A DNA stretch of 53,278 nt from Nanobdellota archaeon (GCA_038043805.1 JBBTBG010000004.1:1-53278); one strand, 5' to 3'; numbered from the stretch's first letter, positions 4,216 through 53,219 are shown. Notes: a model not told the origin generated them from the sequence alone. Program-made: numbers and translations.

Positions 4216-4889
4216 ATGCTAGACCAAATCATCATATATGTTAAAGATGCTTTCAGAGAGCATCCAGGGCAGATCAGACATTTTGAGAGAACGCTCTACT
4301 GGTTAAGAGAGTATCATGCAGAAGCAGATGAGGCTTTTCAAATTGCAGCGTACGCGCATGACATTGAGCGTGCAACGAAAAACGAATAGATTGCCAGAAT
4401 TCCCTTGCTGAGTCAACATGGATATCGTGACCCTGAATTTCTTAAGTATCATCAAGAGCAAGGAGCTAGAGTAATTAAGGAATTTTTACAATCAGAAAAA
4501 CGATGCGCCACCTCACCTTAAAAGGTGAGGTTTGAATAGGCGCTCGTTTTTTGGATGCTCAAGGAACAACTCCAGCTTAAAAGCTGGAGTTTGCGTCAAG
4601 TTCCTTGACATCACATGCATACCCTGTGACTCTCTGCGATCGCGTTCATAGTTTAGTAGCAGCACATGAAGTCGGAGGAGATTTTGAACAAAAACTGTTG
4701 AAAGATTGTGATAGCATGAGTTTCTTTGAAACACAAGTCGATGGATTTGTCACAAAAAAAGTTCCTGAGTTAGGCGTAGTAAAAGTGCGTGATAAATTTG
4801 ACTGGATGTTTAATCGTATCTCTGATTCTAACATACAACATCAAGTGCGGAATCTTTACCAAGGAGCAATTAACCGGCTCCCATTATAA
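4216..4889 (+). pseudogene. HD-domain protein gene interrupted by an in-frame TAG (4387-4389) and by a 119-nt family A element
   Basis: ATG at 4216 reads ...AAYAHDIERATKNE, then TAG, then continues in the same frame as IARIPLLSQHGYRDPEFLKYHQEQGARVIKEFLQS up to 4494. The C-terminal part (HAYPVTLCDRVHSLVAAHEVGGDFEQKLLKDCDSMSFFE...) is in a different frame from 4614. Deleting 4495-4613 (119 nt, 2 mod 3) joins the two frames. Confidence 0.6.
4495..4613 (+). mobile_element. Family A structured insertion element, copy 1 (119 nt)
   Basis: Basal stem 4496-4503/4544-4551 plus GCGC/GCGC (4505-4508/4540-4543). Hairpin 4511-4517/4524-4530. Conserved joint TTTGAATAG, linker TGGATGCTC, second stem 4561-4567/4600-4606, tail GACATCA. 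Preceded by AATCA. Homologous to 24165-24271 and 46599-46691. Confidence 0.75.
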
Positions 4890-8174: not shown

Positions 8175-8903
8175 ATGGTTCCTCCTGAGTCGGATAACAA
8201 TATTTATAAACCACAAATAATTCACAGTAGCAGTATGCTCCCCGGTGATCTAAAAGGGTCGCCGGATGAGTCTTTATTTTCTGCAAAGGAAAATTCTCAT
8301 TGTAACGAGACTCTTGTTTTTATTGATGAAGGTTTTCTTGCTAAGTTGAGTAAACATCTTGGGAAAGGCAGATATGTTAAGTTTGATAAGTTTCTTTTTG
8401 CAAAACTGCTTGCTCAAAAAGAAAGGTTAGACTGTCGCCATATTTTTTATTATACTGCACCACCGTTCCAGTCAAATCGACCTACACGTGACGAGGAACT
8501 ACGCAAGAGAGGATATGATCGTTTTATTAAAAGCTTAAAGAAATCCTCATTAATTACGATACGCGAGGGAAGATGCCAGAGACTTTTGATTGACAGCCAT
8601 CTTATTTTTAAGCAGAAATATGTAGATGTTCTACTTACTATTGACTTGATGAGAATTCCATTAAAATATCCTCAGATTCAAAGAGTTATTTTAATTTCAT
8701 CAGATAGCGATTTTGTTCCAGCGATTCATGCTCTCAAAGAATTTGGTATCAAAGTGATTCTCTATACTTTTTATGAGAAAAAAAGAAACACTAACTTTTC
8801 AAGGAGCAACGATCTTGTGAAAGCAGTGCATAAGTATGTTCTTTTAACTCAGCAAGATTTTCTTAATGCTGAAAAGACGAGGAGGAGCGAGCATGCGTCA
8901 TAA
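8175..8903 (+). CDS. NYN/LabA-like (PIN-related) domain protein
   Basis: Motifs VFIDEGFL and ISSDSDFVPAIHALKEFGIKVILY are typical of the NYN (DUF88/LabA) fold. The start codon is uncertain. Confidence 0.65.
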   Translation: MVPPESDNNIYKPQIIHSSSMLPGDLKGSPDESLFSAKENSHCNETLVFIDEGFLAKLSKHLGKGRYVKFDKFLFAKLLAQKERLDCRHIFYYTAPPFQSNRPTRDEELRKRGYDRFIKSLKKSSLITIREGRCQRLLIDSHLIFKQKYVDVLLTIDLMRIPLKYPQIQRVILISSDSDFVPAIHALKEFGIKVILYTFYEKKRNTNFSRSNDLVKAVHKYVLLTQQDFLNAEKTRRSEHAS

Positions 8904-10020
8904 GACCATCTATCTCGACAGCTCCGCAACTGCACCTGTTTTTCCTGAGGTGATAAAAACAATGCTCCCGTATTTTAAGGAGAAGTACGGCAATCCCTCG
9001 TCACCGCATCAGATGGGTGAAGAAGTACGAGAATCAGTTGAAGACGCTCGAAAGAAGCTCGCCTTAGAGATGGGATGTAAATCAAATGAAGTTATTTTTA
9101 CTTCGGGAGGGACAGAGGCAAATATGCTTGCTTTCAGAGGTCTTGCATCATCTTTAGCATATGAAAAGAAGAAAAAGATTGTCATCAGCGCGATTGAGCA
9201 CTCTTCAGTTTTTGATGTGTGTGATGCCTTGGAAAAACAAGGATTTGAAGTAGTAGAGATAGGTGTATATAAGCAAGGAATCCTGAGATGGGAAGAACTA
9301 GAGAAGGCAGTTGATAGTGATACCCTTATGGTATCAATTATTCATGGAAATAATGAAATAGGAACATTACAAGATATTCATCGCATTGGTATGCTATGCA
9401 AGAAGCGAGGCGTACTGTTTCATACCGATGCTGTGCAATCGTTTGGAAAGGAAATTATTAAAGTACATGATTGGCATATCGACTTATTGACTGCCTCTGC
9501 TCATAAACTGGGAGGACCAAAAGGAATCGGGTTATTGTATGTGTGTTCTGGAGTTTCATTACAACCTTTGATTTTAGGAAGTCAAGAAAGAAGACTACGC
9601 GGGGGAACAGAAAATGTTGCAAGCATTGTAGGTTTTGCTAAGGCAGTGGAGATTGTAAATAGAAAAAGAGGAAAGATGAAACCTCTCCAGTCATTTTTTA
9701 TGCAACGTATAGAAAAGTTAGGTGGAAGAATTACAGGATCGCACGAACAGCGCTTAGAAGATCATGTCTCTGCTGTTTTTCCAGGTGTGAATGCAGAGGT
9801 ACTTGTCTTACGCCTTTCGCAGAAAGGAGTAATGTGTTCTACCAAAAGTGCATGCCTTGATAAAGGTGCGAAAGAAAGTCGCGTGCTTAGAGCCACAGGC
9901 TTATCTGGAGAAGAAATTAGAGGAGCAGTGAGATTCGGATTACATCCAAATCTTACAAAAAAAGATATTTTAAGTACTTTAAAGATCTTAGAAAAATGTC
10001 TTAAAGAAAAAGTTTATTAA
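8893..10020 (+). CDS. Cysteine desulfurase (class V aminotransferase, NifS/IscS-like)
   Basis: YLDSSATAPV N-terminus, a PLP-lysine motif SAHKLGGPKGIG, and C-terminal SACL-type Cys (STKSACL). I take the start at the internal ATG (MRHKTIYLD) rather than the track start at 8866. Confidence 0.85.
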   Translation: MRHKTIYLDSSATAPVFPEVIKTMLPYFKEKYGNPSSPHQMGEEVRESVEDARKKLALEMGCKSNEVIFTSGGTEANMLAFRGLASSLAYEKKKKIVISAIEHSSVFDVCDALEKQGFEVVEIGVYKQGILRWEELEKAVDSDTLMVSIIHGNNEIGTLQDIHRIGMLCKKRGVLFHTDAVQSFGKEIIKVHDWHIDLLTASAHKLGGPKGIGLLYVCSGVSLQPLILGSQERRLRGGTENVASIVGFAKAVEIVNRKRGKMKPLQSFFMQRIEKLGGRITGSHEQRLEDHVSAVFPGVNAEVLVLRLSQKGVMCSTKSACLDKGAKESRVLRATGLSGEEIRGAVRFGLHPNLTKKDILSTLKILEKCLKEKVY

Positions 10021-24147: not shown

Positions 24148-24164
24148 ACCTCCATTTTCTTTTT

Positions 24165-24271
24165 TTATGTCGGGAACCGACGAAAACCACGTCATTCATG
24201 GCGTGGTGGTTCCCGAGCATCTCCAAAAACGAGCGCCTATTCAAACCACGGCTTTTAGCGCATCGTTTTTA
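24165..24271 (-). mobile_element. Family A structured insertion element, copy 2 (107 nt, intergenic, first hairpin largely deleted)
   Basis: The reverse complement reads AATCA|TAAAAACGATGCGC-TAAAAGCCGTGG-TTTGAATAGGCGCTCGTTTTTGGAGATGCTC-GGGAACC...GGTTCCC-GACATAA. Confidence 0.7.
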
Positions 24272-24347
24272 TGATTTATTTTTTTCTTTGTCTGAAAATA
24301 AGAGTTATGCGTTCTTCTGTTATTTTTTCAAGATAATGAAAAGGTTT

Positions 24348-28161: not shown

Positions 28162-28243
28162 GCCCAGATCGCATAATGGCATTGCGCCGCACTCGAAATG
28201 CGGTTTCCGCAAGGATTTCGAGGTTCGATTCCTCGTCTGGGCG
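28162..28243 (+). tRNA. tRNA-Ser (CGA), class II with a long variable arm
   Basis: Acceptor GCCCAGA/TCTGGGC, 3-bp D stem GCA/TGC with GG in the loop, anticodon stem CCGCA/TGCGG with loop CTCGAAA, 15-nt variable arm, T arm CGAGG-TTCGATT-CCTCG, discriminator G. Confidence 0.88.
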
Positions 28244-28323
28244 CTCGGAATCGAAGCGCTCACAGAGCAAAGCTCCGTGGCGACTTTTGCGAAGTATTCG
28301 CTCAAGTATTCCTCTTCTAGACG
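28244..28323 (+). repeat. Family B tRNA-linked module: 64-nt conserved two-hairpin insert (28244-28307) plus a degenerate repeat of the tRNA-Ser 3' end (28308-28323)
   Basis: About 52 of 65 hand-aligned columns are identical to the sequence following tRNA-Val (53085-53148, minus strand). ATTCCTCTTCTAGACG matches tRNA positions 58-73 (ATTCCTCGTCTGGGCG) at 13/16. The repeat period is exactly 80 nt. Confidence 0.75.
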
Positions 28324-28347: not shown

Positions 28348-28683
28348 TTAATCTCCTCCTCCGCCTCCACCATCTCCACCACATCCACCTCCGCTATCTC
28401 CCCAATCGCTTCCACCACCAAAGTATGTAAAGAACGAGGATGAATCGCAGCTTCCCGAATATCTTGAAGACCTTCTGTTTAGTTTGGCAAGTTTGTAGAT
28501 ACAGGTTCCTACAACTAGAGCACATAGTCCCATTGTTGCGCCTAGGCATATTTTTTCACCGAGTGTCAATCCATCAGCTTGTTCTGCCTTTGCCTCAAGG
28601 TTACTCTGCGCATACACAGGGAGCGTAAGTACTGCAGTTATACCTACTTGACAAGATCTACTAATAAATTCTTGGAGTTTCAT
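28348..28683 (-). CDS. Bitopic membrane protein with a Gly/Cys-rich tail ending in GGGGGGD (paralog B)
   Basis: I take the start at MKLQEFISR (28683), 1 nt after the stop of paralog A. It shares LPxYxQSNL, GLT(L/I)GE, a TM segment and a C-terminal CGG.DGGGGGGD with the upstream gene. Confidence 0.6.
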   Translation of the reverse strand: MKLQEFISRSCQVGITAVLTLPVYAQSNLEAKAEQADGLTLGEKICLGATMGLCALVVGTCIYKLAKLNRRSSRYSGSCDSSSFFTYFGGGSDWGDSGGGCGGDGGGGGGD

Positions 28684-28684
28684 T

Positions 28685-29356
28685 TTAGTCTCCTCCACCT
28701 CCACCGCCATCACATCCACCTCCACAGTCGCTACTTCCACTACTACCACAGTCATATCCTCCAGAGTCATGGGAAGAGTGAGAATCAATATGGGAATGAG
28801 AACTCCCAAAATGCTGATGCGAGTGATCTTGATGTGTATGAGGACGTTTGGGCTCTTCAGCTTCAAGCAAGGGATGATGTTGAGGAACAGGATGTTGATA
28901 GTTTTGTGAGCGTTCAAGCTCCTCTTGATGCAGATTTCTTTGAAGGAAAGAATTATTGAGAGCAGGGTCTACGAGATCTGCTACGAGATCTGTTAAAGAA
29001 GATCCTGCATCTACGAAGGGAGTCTCATCTCCTTTGTCTTTTCTTCTTGATGCATAGGTTCCAGAAGAGTATTGTGATGGGGTGCGGGAAGATAATGCTC
29101 GCGAATCTCTATGAGATTGGTCTTTTTTAGCCTGATGTTTTTTATAGAAGTGTCTAATTCCAGTATATACAAGTGCACTCAGTCCCGCAAGGAGTGTACC
29201 TCCTGCAAGGAGTTCTCCGATTGTCAACCCATGTATGGGCGGTGCATCAAGATTGAGATTGCTCTGCGGATACATGGGGAGCATAAGGGAGCTTGTAATC
29301 GCTGTCTGATAAGTTCTCTGGAGTGTTGTTCCGTTAAGTTTTTTTTGTAGCGTCAT
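28685..29356 (-). CDS. Bitopic membrane protein with a His/Ser/Cys/Gly-rich tail ending in GGGGGGD (paralog A)
   Basis: 223-aa ORF: signal-like N-terminus, one TM segment (LLAGGTLLAGLSALVYTGI), His-rich stretch HTHQDHSHQHFGSSHSHIDSHSSHDS, then CGSSGSSDCGGGCDGGGGGGD. Confidence 0.65.
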   Translation of the reverse strand: MTLQKKLNGTTLQRTYQTAITSSLMLPMYPQSNLNLDAPPIHGLTIGELLAGGTLLAGLSALVYTGIRHFYKKHQAKKDQSHRDSRALSSRTPSQYSSGTYASRRKDKGDETPFVDAGSSLTDLVADLVDPALNNSFLQRNLHQEELERSQNYQHPVPQHHPLLEAEEPKRPHTHQDHSHQHFGSSHSHIDSHSSHDSGGYDCGSSGSSDCGGGCDGGGGGGD

Positions 29357-46458: not shown

Positions 46459-46879
46459 GTTTCAACCTCTCTGCAATAACGCGAATGTCACTAATATTTT
46501 TAGAAGCGATGGAAAGCATATGATGTTTGAGTAATTCTCGATCAACAGTTTTTTTGTGTTGATCAGCAAAGGCAAATGTTATAAACATGGCTGTTTTTTT
46601 ATGTCGGGGATCGACGGTCGCTCCCCGAGCATCCAAAGCACGAGCGCTTCCCCAAACCCCATCCTTTAGGATGGAGTGCGCATCGTGCTTTTGATTTCCA
46701 TCACTAAAGGGATGGTCAATTAAAATGGCTCGCATAAGATAGGCAAGTTTTTTGTAAATGCCTAATTTCTTTCTCTGCTGTTGATCGAGGGCAAAATCAA
46801 GGCTTGAGCTATTACTAAGAGTACCTCCAAATCCAAGAGCAATTCTACTAATGTCTTCCTTACTAATATTCATACACAT
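46445..46879 (-). CDS. doc: Doc (Fic-fold) toxin gene carrying an in-frame 93-nt family A element inside the catalytic motif
   Basis: HPFSDGNQK-[31 inserted codons]-TAMFITFAF. Removing 46599-46691 gives HPFSDGNQKTAMF, matching the length and pattern of HPFxDGNKRTA. Confidence 0.7.
   Translation of the reverse strand: MCMNISKEDISRIALGFGGTLSNSSSLDFALDQQQRKKLGIYKKLAYLMRAILIDHPFSDGNQKHDAHSILKDGVWGSARALDARGATVDPRHKKTAMFITFAFADQHKKTVDRELLKHHMLSIASKNISDIRVIAERLKHVIH
46599..46691 (-). mobile_element. Family A structured insertion element, copy 3 (93 nt)
   Basis: The minus strand reads AATCA|AAAGCACGA-T-GCGC-AC-TCCATCC-TAAA-GGATGGGG-TTTGGGGAA-GCGC-TCGTGCTTT-GGATGCTC-GGGGA-GCGACCGTCGA-TCCCC-GACATAA. 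Confidence 0.75.
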
Positions 46880-50085: not shown

Positions 50086-50634
50086 ATGTCAACATCATGG
50101 CAAAGAGGAGAGCGCAAATACCTTCCTGAATTTGTTTACGGAGGTATCGATGGAGCGGTGACGACGTTCGCAGTTGTTGCAGGCTCTATGGGTGCATCTC
50201 TCTCCTCAACAATTATTCTTATTCTTGGATTCGCCAATCTTATCGCAGATGGTTTTTCCATGGCCGTTTCTAACTATCTTTCTACAAAATCCCAGCAGGA
50301 CTTGCATCGCCACGACGCAGAAACAAAATTCTTTAAAAAAGAAGCAAAACATCCTTTTAAAACAGCAATAGCAACATTCTTTTCATTCATCATCATTGGA
50401 ATCATCCCTCTTCTCTCATTTGTCTGCGCAGTTTTTCTTCCCACACTCATTACTTTGCAGTTCACCCTTTCCTTTCTTTTAACAGGCGTTGCTCTCATCA
50501 TAGTAGGCGCTGTGAAAGGGACAATCGTGAAAAAGCATCCCTTCCACTCCTCTCTGGAAACACTCTTTATTGGAGGCGTCGCCGCCCTTCTTGCCTATGT
50601 CGTTGGTGCAGGAGTCAAAGCAATCATTAATTAA
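50086..50634 (+). CDS. VIT1/CCC1-family iron/manganese transporter-like membrane protein
   Basis: EFVYGGIDGAVTTFAVVAG and GFANLIADGFSMAVSNYLS blocks, with C-terminal TM segments. Confidence 0.75.
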   Translation: MSTSWQRGERKYLPEFVYGGIDGAVTTFAVVAGSMGASLSSTIILILGFANLIADGFSMAVSNYLSTKSQQDLHRHDAETKFFKKEAKHPFKTAIATFFSFIIIGIIPLLSFVCAVFLPTLITLQFTLSFLLTGVALIIVGAVKGTIVKKHPFHSSLETLFIGGVAALLAYVVGAGVKAIIN

Positions 50635-50635
50635 T

Positions 50636-51142
50636 ATGACTAATACAGATTATAGTGTTCAGAGACGTATTGAAATTGTTAAAGCAATGGAGAAGATAGT
50701 TCTTAAATCACCTAGCGATTTGATAGATTTTGTGTGTGAACTCATGAATGTTCCTAAAGACCAAGTATTGGCAGAAAAAGGGCCAAAACGCAATCCTGAA
50801 CTCTTGAGTACCCGTCATGTAATTCAATATCTTTTAGAAGGAAAGTTTCACCTCGGAAAAAGCGAGATAGGAAGATTGACCAACAGAGACCATGGATCAG
50901 TCATTAATGCGATTAAAGGAATTGAGGGCATGCTTCAAACGTATGGAAAACAAGTCAACCCGATTCATATTCCTGAAAGTTTGTTGAGAAAATACAGCGA
51001 ACAAGAGAGAGATCTCTCTTATATTGTACAAACTCCATTAGAAATTCTTGCGCCTGTGAGAAAATCACATGTCTATTATATTGTATTGAATCAGCCAACA
51101 CTAAGACATAAAAAACTCTCAAAAACTCTGAGCCTCGGATAA
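50636..51142 (+). CDS. Protein with a DnaA C-terminal-domain-like helix-turn-helix
   Basis: STRHVIQYLLEGKFHLGKSEIGRLTNRDHGSVINAIKGIE matches the R..AMYL....SL.EIG..F..RDHSTV.HA..KI pattern of bacterial DnaA domain IV. I take the start at the ATG at 50636. Confidence 0.6.
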   Translation: MTNTDYSVQRRIEIVKAMEKIVLKSPSDLIDFVCELMNVPKDQVLAEKGPKRNPELLSTRHVIQYLLEGKFHLGKSEIGRLTNRDHGSVINAIKGIEGMLQTYGKQVNPIHIPESLLRKYSEQERDLSYIVQTPLEILAPVRKSHVYYIVLNQPTLRHKKLSKTLSLG

Positions 51143-52829: not shown

Positions 52830-53123
52830 ATGTCGCGATTATGGGGAAGTATCCGTGAAGTAGGATCTCTAGCATTATGGTCAGGATATATGATCTACGA
52901 AGCAGGCGTGGACCTTCTCAGCATTACCTACAATCGACTCAAAAACTACCGTATTTCTTATATGAAAGAAAAAGATCTTTTTATTCCAACTATCTATCTC
53001 CCTTCAGGAAGAGACGATCATCGTGCCCTGCCTCTATTGAATCTCATCTATAAAGAAAAAGAAAGAACTGGCCCCACAGGGAATACTTTAGCGAATACTT
53101 CGCGAAAGTCACCACGGAACTAA
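52830..53123 (+). CDS. Hypothetical small protein; the 3' end reads into the family B repeat
   Basis: 97-aa ORF with a hydrophobic N-terminus. The last ~18 codons (TGPTGNTLANTSRKSPRN) are encoded by the tRNA-Val 3' repeat and the 64-nt module, so the C-terminus is doubtful. Confidence 0.4.
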   Translation: MSRLWGSIREVGSLALWSGYMIYEAGVDLLSITYNRLKNYRISYMKEKDLFIPTIYLPSGRDDHRALPLLNLIYKEKERTGPTGNTLANTSRKSPRN

Positions 53124-53148
53124 GTTCTGTGAGTGCGTTCGATTCAGA
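53069..53148 (-). repeat. Family B tRNA-linked module: 64-nt conserved insert (53085-53148) plus an exact 16-nt repeat of the tRNA-Val 3' end (53069-53084)
   Basis: On the minus strand, ATTCCCTGTGGGGCCA occurs at 53164-53149 (inside the tRNA) and again at 53084-53069, 80 nt apart. The intervening 64 nt is homologous to 28244-28307. Confidence 0.75.
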
Positions 53149-53219
53149 TGGCCCCACAGGGAATCGAACCCCGGCGTCCTCCACGTGAAAGAGGCGTTCT
53201 GCCACTAGACTATAGGGCC
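53149..53219 (-). tRNA. tRNA-Val (CAC)
   Basis: Acceptor GGCCCTA/TGGGGCC, anticodon stem CCTCT/GGAGG with loop TTCACGT, T arm CGGGG-TTCGATT-CCCTG, discriminator A. The D stem is weak (one C-A mismatch) and the variable loop is 4 nt. Confidence 0.78.

Follow-up and report, generated by a model that had tools for sequence, protein, structure and literature searches.

A putative mobile hairpin element of 51 nt at tRNA gene ends in Nanoarchaeota

The tRNA-Val and tRNA-Ser loci

The DNA analyzed here (the window, 53,278 nt) is a whole contig of a Nanoarchaeota (DPANN) metagenome-assembled genome (MAG) from Hainich groundwater; identical stretches are found in several well assemblies, and the contig carries ordinary DPANN housekeeping genes. 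Close to its end, an intact tRNA-Val(CAC) gene is encoded on the minus strand (53149..53219; ARAGORN, and Rfam tRNA with 52.8 bits). The last 16 nt of this gene (53164-53149, tRNA positions 58-73; ATTCCCTGTGGGGCCA) span the end of the T-loop, the 3' strands of the T-stem and the acceptor stem, and the discriminator. A repeat search found an exact copy of them at 53069..53084, also on the minus strand. The two occurrences of TGGCCCCACAGGGAAT (53069-53084 and 53149-53164) are 100% identical and 80 nt apart, as stated in the first-pass annotation of this DNA. The chance expectation for an exact 16-mer to recur within ~100 nt is about 2e-8.

Between the two copies, on the strand of the tRNA, there is first a 3-nt linker, TCT (53146..53148), followed by the inverted repeat GAATCGAAC (53137..53145), an exact 9-nt reverse complement of tRNA-Val positions 53-61 (T-loop) that begins 3 nt past the tRNA. 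When the two-hairpin core described next is removed, the G at 53136 and the C at 53137 can also be read as sense tRNA-Val positions 56-57. Two hairpins come next, H1 (53110..53135) and H2 (53085..53109), then the second copy of the tRNA 3' end and a T-rich run, GTTCTTTCTTTTTCTTT (53052..53068). The 64-nt insert, which the first-pass annotation had treated as a single module, does belong to a real repeat family but is composite: its first 13 nt are tRNA-derived (the inverted T-loop and positions 56-57), and the mobile core, referred to below as M, is only 51 nt long. The linker varies by locus, being TCT at tRNA-Val, CTC at the tRNA-Ser of the window, and TGA in a related genome, L020.

Since the T-rich stretch still follows the second Val copy, this copy is most likely the original 3' end of the tRNA gene, judging from the sequence, and GTTCTTTCTTTTTCTTT would probably be the original tRNA-Val terminator, displaced by 80 nt. 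For comparison, the empty tRNA-Ser site of another related genome, L023, runs straight into TTTT. Past the second copy, no further decayed copies of the tRNA tail were found. The opposite (plus) strand contains a 97-aa ORF with no Pfam match (52830..53123), which, as noted earlier, runs into the repeat. It crosses the whole second copy and continues over the greater part of the module: its final 18 codons come from these sequences, and its stop codon lies inside the loop of H1. The C-terminus of this ORF is probably not genuine; in practical terms, the second 16-mer and the module produce spurious ORFs of this kind. The 149-aa protein encoded beside tRNA-Val has a sole homologue, 98% identical, on a contig that stops short of the tRNA; outside the strain, no homologue was found. 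About 2 kb from tRNA-Val, ORF 50570-51142 (plus) of this archaeal contig encodes a bacterial DnaA C-terminal helix-turn-helix domain (PF08299, 36 bits).

A sister copy is found on the plus strand at tRNA-Ser(CGA) (28162..28243; ARAGORN, Rfam). This gene is followed by the linker CTC, the inverted repeat GGAATCGAA (reverse complement of positions 54-62) and a G (sense position 57), which together occupy 28244..28256; then by the sister core M (28257..28307, with H1 at 28257-28282 and H2 at 28283-28307; cmsearch score of 80.4 bits for 28256-28307); and finally by a decayed copy of tRNA-Ser positions 58-73 (28308..28323). The geometry is the same as at tRNA-Val: 28228-28243 and 28308-28323 are 80 nt apart and identical at 13/16 positions. 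Alignment of the Val and Ser 64-nt inserts, which needs a single 1-nt gap per sequence, gives 54 matches over 65 columns (about 52/65 had been claimed), and a gap-free block of 57 nt is 86% identical, while the flanks of the two loci show no relation. The Val repeat combined with the sister geometry is far beyond chance. The earlier proposal that the Val locus holds a second family copy at a tRNA 3' end, brought there by insertion and not by segmental duplication, is supported by the unrelated flanks, the recurrence of the arrangement, and the empty site in L023. Directly downstream of the Ser module, the neighboring minus-strand ORFs 28348-28917 and 28685-29356 have no Pfam match; both have Gly/Cys-rich tails (..GGGCGGDGGGGGGD) that were detected as a repeat family.

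Some independent assemblies of the same strain break inside tRNA-Ser (L040 and L042, at about position 28191 of the window) or just before the Val module (L025, at about 52840). These breaks may indicate assembly trouble at the two tRNA loci, although other contigs span them. All other contigs that do so are identical, i.e., there is no strain polymorphism at either locus. For the user of such assemblies, the practical consequence is that some contigs stop at or near module-bearing tRNAs and others assemble through.

The window also contains three copies of a structured element of ~120 nt (4485-4625, minus; 24150-24275, plus; 46584-46700, plus), with a conserved core of the form GAGCATCCAAAAAACGAGCGCCTATTCAAACC .. 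variable hairpin .. GCGCATCGTTTTT and no Rfam match. A homologue in L032 (14492-14616) is 87% identical over 125 nt, next to a protein that is only 65% identical. This element, probably the 'family A' of the first-pass annotation, looks like an undescribed ncRNA gene family.

Structure and conservation of the 51-nt core

In the Val copy, H1 has the sequence CAC-T-CAC-A-GAAC tta GTTC-C-GTG-GTG, which forms three short helices with a 3-nt loop, a bulged base, and an A.C mismatch that is G.U on the opposite strand. The hairpin was delineated from folds, covariation, and RNAalifold on the opposite strand. The previously noted compensatory change from GAAC/GTTC (Val) to GAGC/GCTC (Ser) is real, and among all copies both sides have changed at 5/10 pairs, 95% of cells are paired, and 0/500 shuffles match the score. 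H2, delineated from the alignment, the covariance model, and a 12-nt tandem repeat, is a near-palindrome, ACTTTCGCGAA gta TTCGCTAAAGT, and the part of M with the highest sequence conservation; the sequence of its loop, AAGT.ATTC, is found again where M joins the tRNA copy. On the strand of M that runs with tRNA-Val (M+), H2 contains U.C and C.U mismatches, which turn into tandem G.A on the opposite strand. On that strand, none of the M+ mismatches (A.C, U.C, C.U) persists, as each is replaced by G.U or tandem G.A, and its fold is also better than that of M+ (z of -2.2/-2.4 versus -1.1/-1.3). The hairpins are thus imperfect, strand-distinguishing, and located near both ends of M. Given the H1 covariation and a mismatch asymmetry that favors the opposite strand, M is probably recognized as a folded single strand, most likely the one antisense to tRNA-Val. 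Besides, the orthologous copy in L020 carries in its H2 loop a 48-nt insertion consisting of two further hairpins, and the toleration of this insertion argues against a double-stranded palindromic protein site.

Comparison with Rfam 15 yielded only tRNAs at gathering score, and no match overlapped M even at E-values up to 10. Readings of M as a C/D-box or H/ACA RNA, a hammerhead, a group II domain V/VI, or an origin-recognition box were rejected, as the respective motifs are, by inspection, not conserved among the copies and there is no Rfam match. Neither an integron integrase in the window nor the attC R box GTTRRRY at the borders was found, and peptides translated from the module had no match in the protein database at E up to 10. 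The ends of the 64-nt insert, TCTGAATCGAAC.. and ..CGCTAAAGT, show no terminal inverted repeats by inspection; they have only GAAT in common, at unequal distances.

Between the orthologous copies of the window and L020, there are 5/61 differences in the inverted repeat and M (three of these in the H1 loop, AAA versus TTT) and 9/19 in the linker and the 16-nt copy (Fisher p = 4e-4). This pattern suggests that M and the inverted repeat have been kept by selection after insertion, while the spare tRNA tail decays. Such in situ conservation could equally mean a host function. It is conceivable, if distinctly unlikely, that M and the inverted T-loop repeat are a structured RNA or DNA element retained by the host and functional in the locus, its mobile past being secondary; options include a small RNA antisense to tRNA-Val or a 3'-trailer that pairs with the T-arm and affects 3' processing or termination. 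Such a role would account for the conservation of M and the 9-nt inverted repeat next to a decaying 16-nt copy and for the H1 covariation. It would also fit the finding that 9-12 nt able to pair with the T-arm follow the tRNA, as an inverted repeat, at Val, Ser, L020, and the third locus, L001 (described below), and, without M, at a tRNA-Leu of L029. However, M is missing from most tRNAs, including the orthologous tRNA-Ser of L023, it points either way with respect to the tRNA depending on the locus, identical tandem copies are present in L006 (also described below), and no Rfam family is matched. In the L029 case (9139-9250), tRNA-Leu(AAG) is followed after 9 nt by AGGATTCGAA, the reverse complement of the T-loop and the start of the T-stem, and then by TATTTT, with no module; this inverted match is partly the palindrome TTCGAA and its significance is uncertain.

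Other copies, empty sites, and the insertion motif

The conserved H2 core served as an exact pattern for scanning genome, metagenome, and viral collections. A single true match came from the genomes (L001) and another from the metagenomes (L006), the latter along with nine chance matches in coding sequence (L002-L005, L007-L011); in the viral collection, there was no true match, only one chance match in a capsid gene (L019). L001 is a Hainich Nanoarchaeota MAG in which M adjoins tRNA-Gly(GCC), with the T-loop TTCAATT, in the orientation opposite to that at Val and Ser. Read along the strand of the tRNA, the gene and its trailer are followed by the reverse complement of positions 57-67, T, TTCAATT, M (reversed), and CCCGA-GGTCGCA-TTTA, so M splits a fold-back copy of the tRNA tail at 60/61. 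L006 (2224-2414) contains at least 2 identical 90-nt units, each made of the module and tRNA-tail fragments, in tandem up to the contig end; the array starts inside the H2 loop, 8-12 nt past a thioredoxin gene, and the host tRNA lies beyond the contig. A simple inversion of the Val/Ser arrangement was considered as the source of the L001 and L006 arrangements but does not reproduce the observed order. In total, M is found at four independent sites, three of them beside the genes for tRNA-Val, tRNA-Ser, and tRNA-Gly and the fourth beside a tRNA that was not seen; both orientations occur, and one site has a tandem array.

Orthologous tRNA-Ser loci were reached via homologues of the neighboring SFM1-like protein. 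In L023 (69% protein identity), tRNA-Ser(CGA) is directly followed by TTTT, an empty site, whereas in L020 (78% protein identity) the module is present at the same tRNA-Ser; the other SFM1-neighbor loci (L022, L026-L038) carry no M. Its distribution and this empty orthologous site indicate that M is a small mobile element. The L020 locus is layered: tRNA-Ser is followed by T and a perfect 12-nt inverted repeat of positions 53-64, then by a DUF2569 gene, and beyond the latter by a second copy of positions 62-73 with the trailer, the module, and a decayed 13/16 copy of positions 58-73. The DUF2569 membrane-protein gene and its upstream region (8805-9331) lie between perfect 24-nt direct repeats, CTCGTCTGGGCGTGAGGAATCGAA (tRNA-Ser 62-73 and trailer). 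This gene, which in L020 sits between tRNA-Ser and the module and is missing from the window, is a cassette captured at the same tRNA-Ser site, and the layering means that the site was used repeatedly.

Deletion of the 51-nt M leaves continuous tRNA-derived sequence at Val, Ser, and L001. At Val the result is ..GAATCGAA-CG|ATTCCCTGTGGGGCCA, i.e., the inverted T-loop followed by sense positions 56-73; at Ser it is ..GGAATCGAA-G|ATTCC, and in L001, TTCAATT|CCCGA-GGTCGCA. M at Val and Ser is thus a clean insertion, with no duplication of its own, into a partial fold-back copy of the tRNA tail, which it enters in the T-loop at 57/58. As the M-deleted sequence is continuous and the 16-nt repeat lies inside the tRNA copy that hosts M, the repeat is part of that copy and not a transposase-type target duplication of M. 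The fold-back copy accompanies all four M insertions (4/4) and is absent at ~14 M-less tRNAs, save for the inverted repeat alone at tRNA-Leu of L029, which is why it may have been made by the same event as the M insertion. The length of the direct repeat differs between events (16, 16-17, 17, at least 21, and 24 nt), which speaks against a fixed-stagger transposase.

These observations bear on two further readings. In a cut-and-paste or casposon-like transposition, a staggered cut would have duplicated 16 nt of the tRNA 3' end around a 64-nt miniature derivative. The 16-nt repeats and the same 80-nt period at both window copies are what such a cut would give, and casposons do target tRNA 3' ends with duplications of at least 14 nt and form tandem arrays that share the duplication (PMC4779613). 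Nevertheless, the repeats come in several lengths (16, 17, at least 21, 24 nt), no terminal inverted repeats are seen on inspection of the 64-nt ends, the first 13 nt come from the tRNA instead of an element, and neither Cas1 nor PolB was recognized in the window. The variable repeat length and the clean excision largely refute this reading, which we consider highly improbable.

The position of M exactly within the T-loop sequence also recalls a former tRNA intron or split-tRNA leader, with M as a T-loop intron (57/58) and the second copy as the true 3' exon. Non-canonical positions of tRNA introns and intron 'transposition' are known in Archaea. Mobile elements that disrupt archaeal tRNAs have been described as well (PMC3293823). 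This reading is barely credible: nothing is missing from the tRNAs upstream, the Ser copy at the distal end is unable to pair with the 5' strand of the acceptor stem (TCTAGAC versus TCTGGGC), no bulge-helix-bulge is evident by eye at either junction, and M is found in both orientations.

The four independent events have the M+ strand flanks G|ATT, G|ATT, G|AATT, and G|GATT, i.e., G^ATT (AAT^C on the other strand) at 4/4 events, in a small sample in which all sites are T-loops. The insertion points appear to share this short motif and not the whole T-loop, with the reservation that n=4 and that the motif is confounded by T-loop conservation. On the same flanks, the orientation of M appears to follow the short motif and not the tRNA. 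The T-loops of the window are as reported in the first-pass annotation, GGTTCGATTCC in Val and Ser and GTGCGAATCC in Glu and Pro, but the specificity that it derived from them does not hold. The T-loop TTCGATTCC cannot be the determinant, as tRNA-Ser(GGA) of the same genome (L012 7956-8039; T-loop GGTTCGATTCC) and tRNA-Ser(CGA) of L023 share it and carry no module; nor is the module confined to the GGTTCGATTCC-type T-loop, given the oppositely oriented module at tRNA-Gly(GCC) of L001 with its TTCAATT. It follows from these counterexamples that the whole T-loop sequence is neither sufficient nor necessary.

The strongest rival explanation, although still rather unlikely, takes the block for what a tyrosine or other integrase left behind after site-specific integration: entry at the T-loop would have supplied a new 3' end, the direct repeats would be attL/attR cores, and the 64 nt would be leftover att arms or an att-bearing mini-element, with cassettes such as the L020 DUF2569 gene using the same site. 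Direct repeats of a tRNA 3' end that start in the T-loop, with the proximal tRNA intact, are the classic signature of this process, and a repeat length that varies (16, 17, at least 21, 24 nt) resembles att identity blocks. In L020, a 0.5-kb cassette in a perfect 24-nt repeat adjoins the tRNA and the older M block lies beyond it, an arrangement that looks like tandem integrations. H2 might be taken for a T-arm-like structure in which a 7-bp spacer, AAGTATT, separates inverted arms of 9 bp, and archaeal tRNA fragments left by integrating elements are documented (PMC9897764, PMC3293823). On the other hand, no integrase was recognized in the window, none is recorded beside M in L001, L006, or L020, and there was no viral contig match. 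Val, Ser, and Gly share the 51-nt core but have tRNA-specific repeats, so each would need its own attP, and two independent deletions cannot yield the same 80-nt remnant at Val and Ser. Furthermore, M interrupts the tRNA copy cleanly rather than lying alongside it and does not decay like the repeat, as a relic would be expected to. After this rival comes the host-retained element; the casposon-like and ex-intron readings are poorly supported.

A proposed non-autonomous hairpin element and its relation to known systems

In the best explanation, to which we give roughly even confidence, M is a hairpin element that cannot move autonomously and homes, probably in single-stranded form, to T-loop-like DNA; it is found within a spare copy of the tRNA tail. 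The layers that follow the intact tRNA (linker, inverted T-loop, and sense tRNA copy from the T-loop to the 3' end) form a fold-back partial duplicate, the distal end of which is most likely the original tRNA tail with its T-rich terminator. M would enter the T-loop part of this duplicate without duplicating its own target and in one orientation relative to G^ATT on M+ (AAT^C on the complement). This motif is located on the sense strand of TTCG^ATT T-loops and on the antisense strand, at the loop/stem junction, of TTCAATT T-loops, and its strand would explain why M runs in the direction of tRNA-Val and tRNA-Ser but against that of tRNA-Gly. M would move as folded single-stranded DNA with an enzyme provided in trans; the most likely candidate is a Y1/HUH transposase like those of IS200/IS605, the alternative being a recombinase that acts on hairpin sites. 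Insertions in real T-loops would be purged, so that only those in spare-tail copies survive. A simple peel-and-paste model does not predict that the fold-back copy would be made by the same event as the M insertion.

No integrase, transposase, or Cas1 domain was found in the 41 scanned window ORFs of at least 150 aa (40 by Pfam, one as a homologue-search query), which makes M non-autonomous within these 53 kb, and tblastn detected no Y1 transposase in the 53-kb window. An IS200/IS605 TnpA is encoded in L035, from a relative 63% identical at the neighboring protein; its linkage to M is only putative. The gene (L035 9287-9835, also in L037 and L036; 182 aa, NF033573 with 79 bits) adjoins the SFM1-like gene of a related nanoarchaeal genome and is flanked by several hairpins.

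REP-like clusters of a TCA..TGA hairpin family (TCA-N5-6-loop-N5-6-TGA) are found in L036 (5690-5930 and 8246-8363) and L020 (19510-19651), with 11 perfect hairpins of at least 8 bp in 9.7 kb versus 0.4 expected, and a hairpin in the H2 loop of L020 (8687-8705) is a member of the same family. One hairpin (TCAGGAATT GAA AATTCCTGA) resembles a T-arm fold-back.

A bolder version of the proposal is possible but doubtful, namely that M is a T-loop-homing miniature element, the first in DPANN, which travels as single-stranded DNA, recognizes G^ATT of T-arm-like hairpins, makes or exploits fold-back tails, and is selected together with a trans-acting Y1/HUH enzyme or hairpin-specific recombinase in a REPIN/RAYT-like manner, at sites that also take cassettes (DUF2569 in L020). 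If homing to the T-loop as a single strand is true, REP/PATE-like biology would reach the ultrasmall DPANN archaea, tRNA genes would have a concrete route to disruption, duplication, and decoration by cassettes, and tRNA tails would act as small platforms for cassette capture, as with the DUF2569 gene of L020.

Whatever its mode of propagation, M is a real, rare, and undescribed small element and a variant of a known theme, mobile DNA at tRNA gene ends. These ends are classic landing pads for mobile DNA, but the users known so far measure kilobases and bring along an integrase or casposase. Here, in contrast, a 51-nt hairpin element alone marks the tRNA end and is conserved while the tail copy that hosts it decays.

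The closest parallels fall into four groups. Like the archaeal integrative elements of tRNA 3' ends (PMC9897764; PMC3293823), the M loci have a direct repeat from the T-loop to the 3' end, an intact proximal tRNA, and a decaying distal fragment, and repeated use of one tRNA leads to tandem inserts, as in L020. They differ from these elements in that a 64-nt insert has no integrase, the same core is found at different tRNAs, the repeats being specific to each tRNA, and is located within the tRNA copy, accompanied by an inverted copy of the T-loop.

The IS200/IS605 elements and their miniature derivatives, i.e., palindrome-associated elements and REP/REPIN with RAYT, resemble M in that either end has an imperfect hairpin that differs between the strands and the borders show no duplicated target; M also seems to insert in one orientation by a short motif, as they do. 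In the clade studied here, a TnpA gene and REP-like hairpin clusters in related genomes add to the likeness. Characterized IS200/IS605 ends have spacers between the hairpin and the cleavage site, whereas the hairpins of M abut the ends of the element. M is also much smaller, its 51 nt being, to our knowledge, below the size of the known derivatives, is present in few copies per genome, is confined to tRNA-derived sequence, and has no cognate transposase gene in the 53-kb window. Long persistence with conserved hairpins, as described for REPINs (bioRxiv 10.1101/2021.07.10.451892), is another shared feature, although REPIN/RAYT systems are described for bacteria and M is archaeal.

Casposons (PMC4779613) likewise target the tRNA 3' end, duplicate its tail, and form tandem arrays with a shared duplicated segment. 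M has none of their terminal inverted repeats, Cas1, or PolB, the length of the duplication varies within the M family, and the units are 50-90 nt instead of kilobases. Finally, some insertion elements target hairpins: IS1397 inserts in enterobacterial palindromic units, and members of the IS110 family insert in REPs. M shares with them insertion near the loop of a DNA palindrome, here made up of the inverted repeat and the sense T-loop copy, and the H2 loop of L020 has itself received more hairpins; however, IS1397 and the IS110-family elements are full-size insertion sequences with their own transposase.
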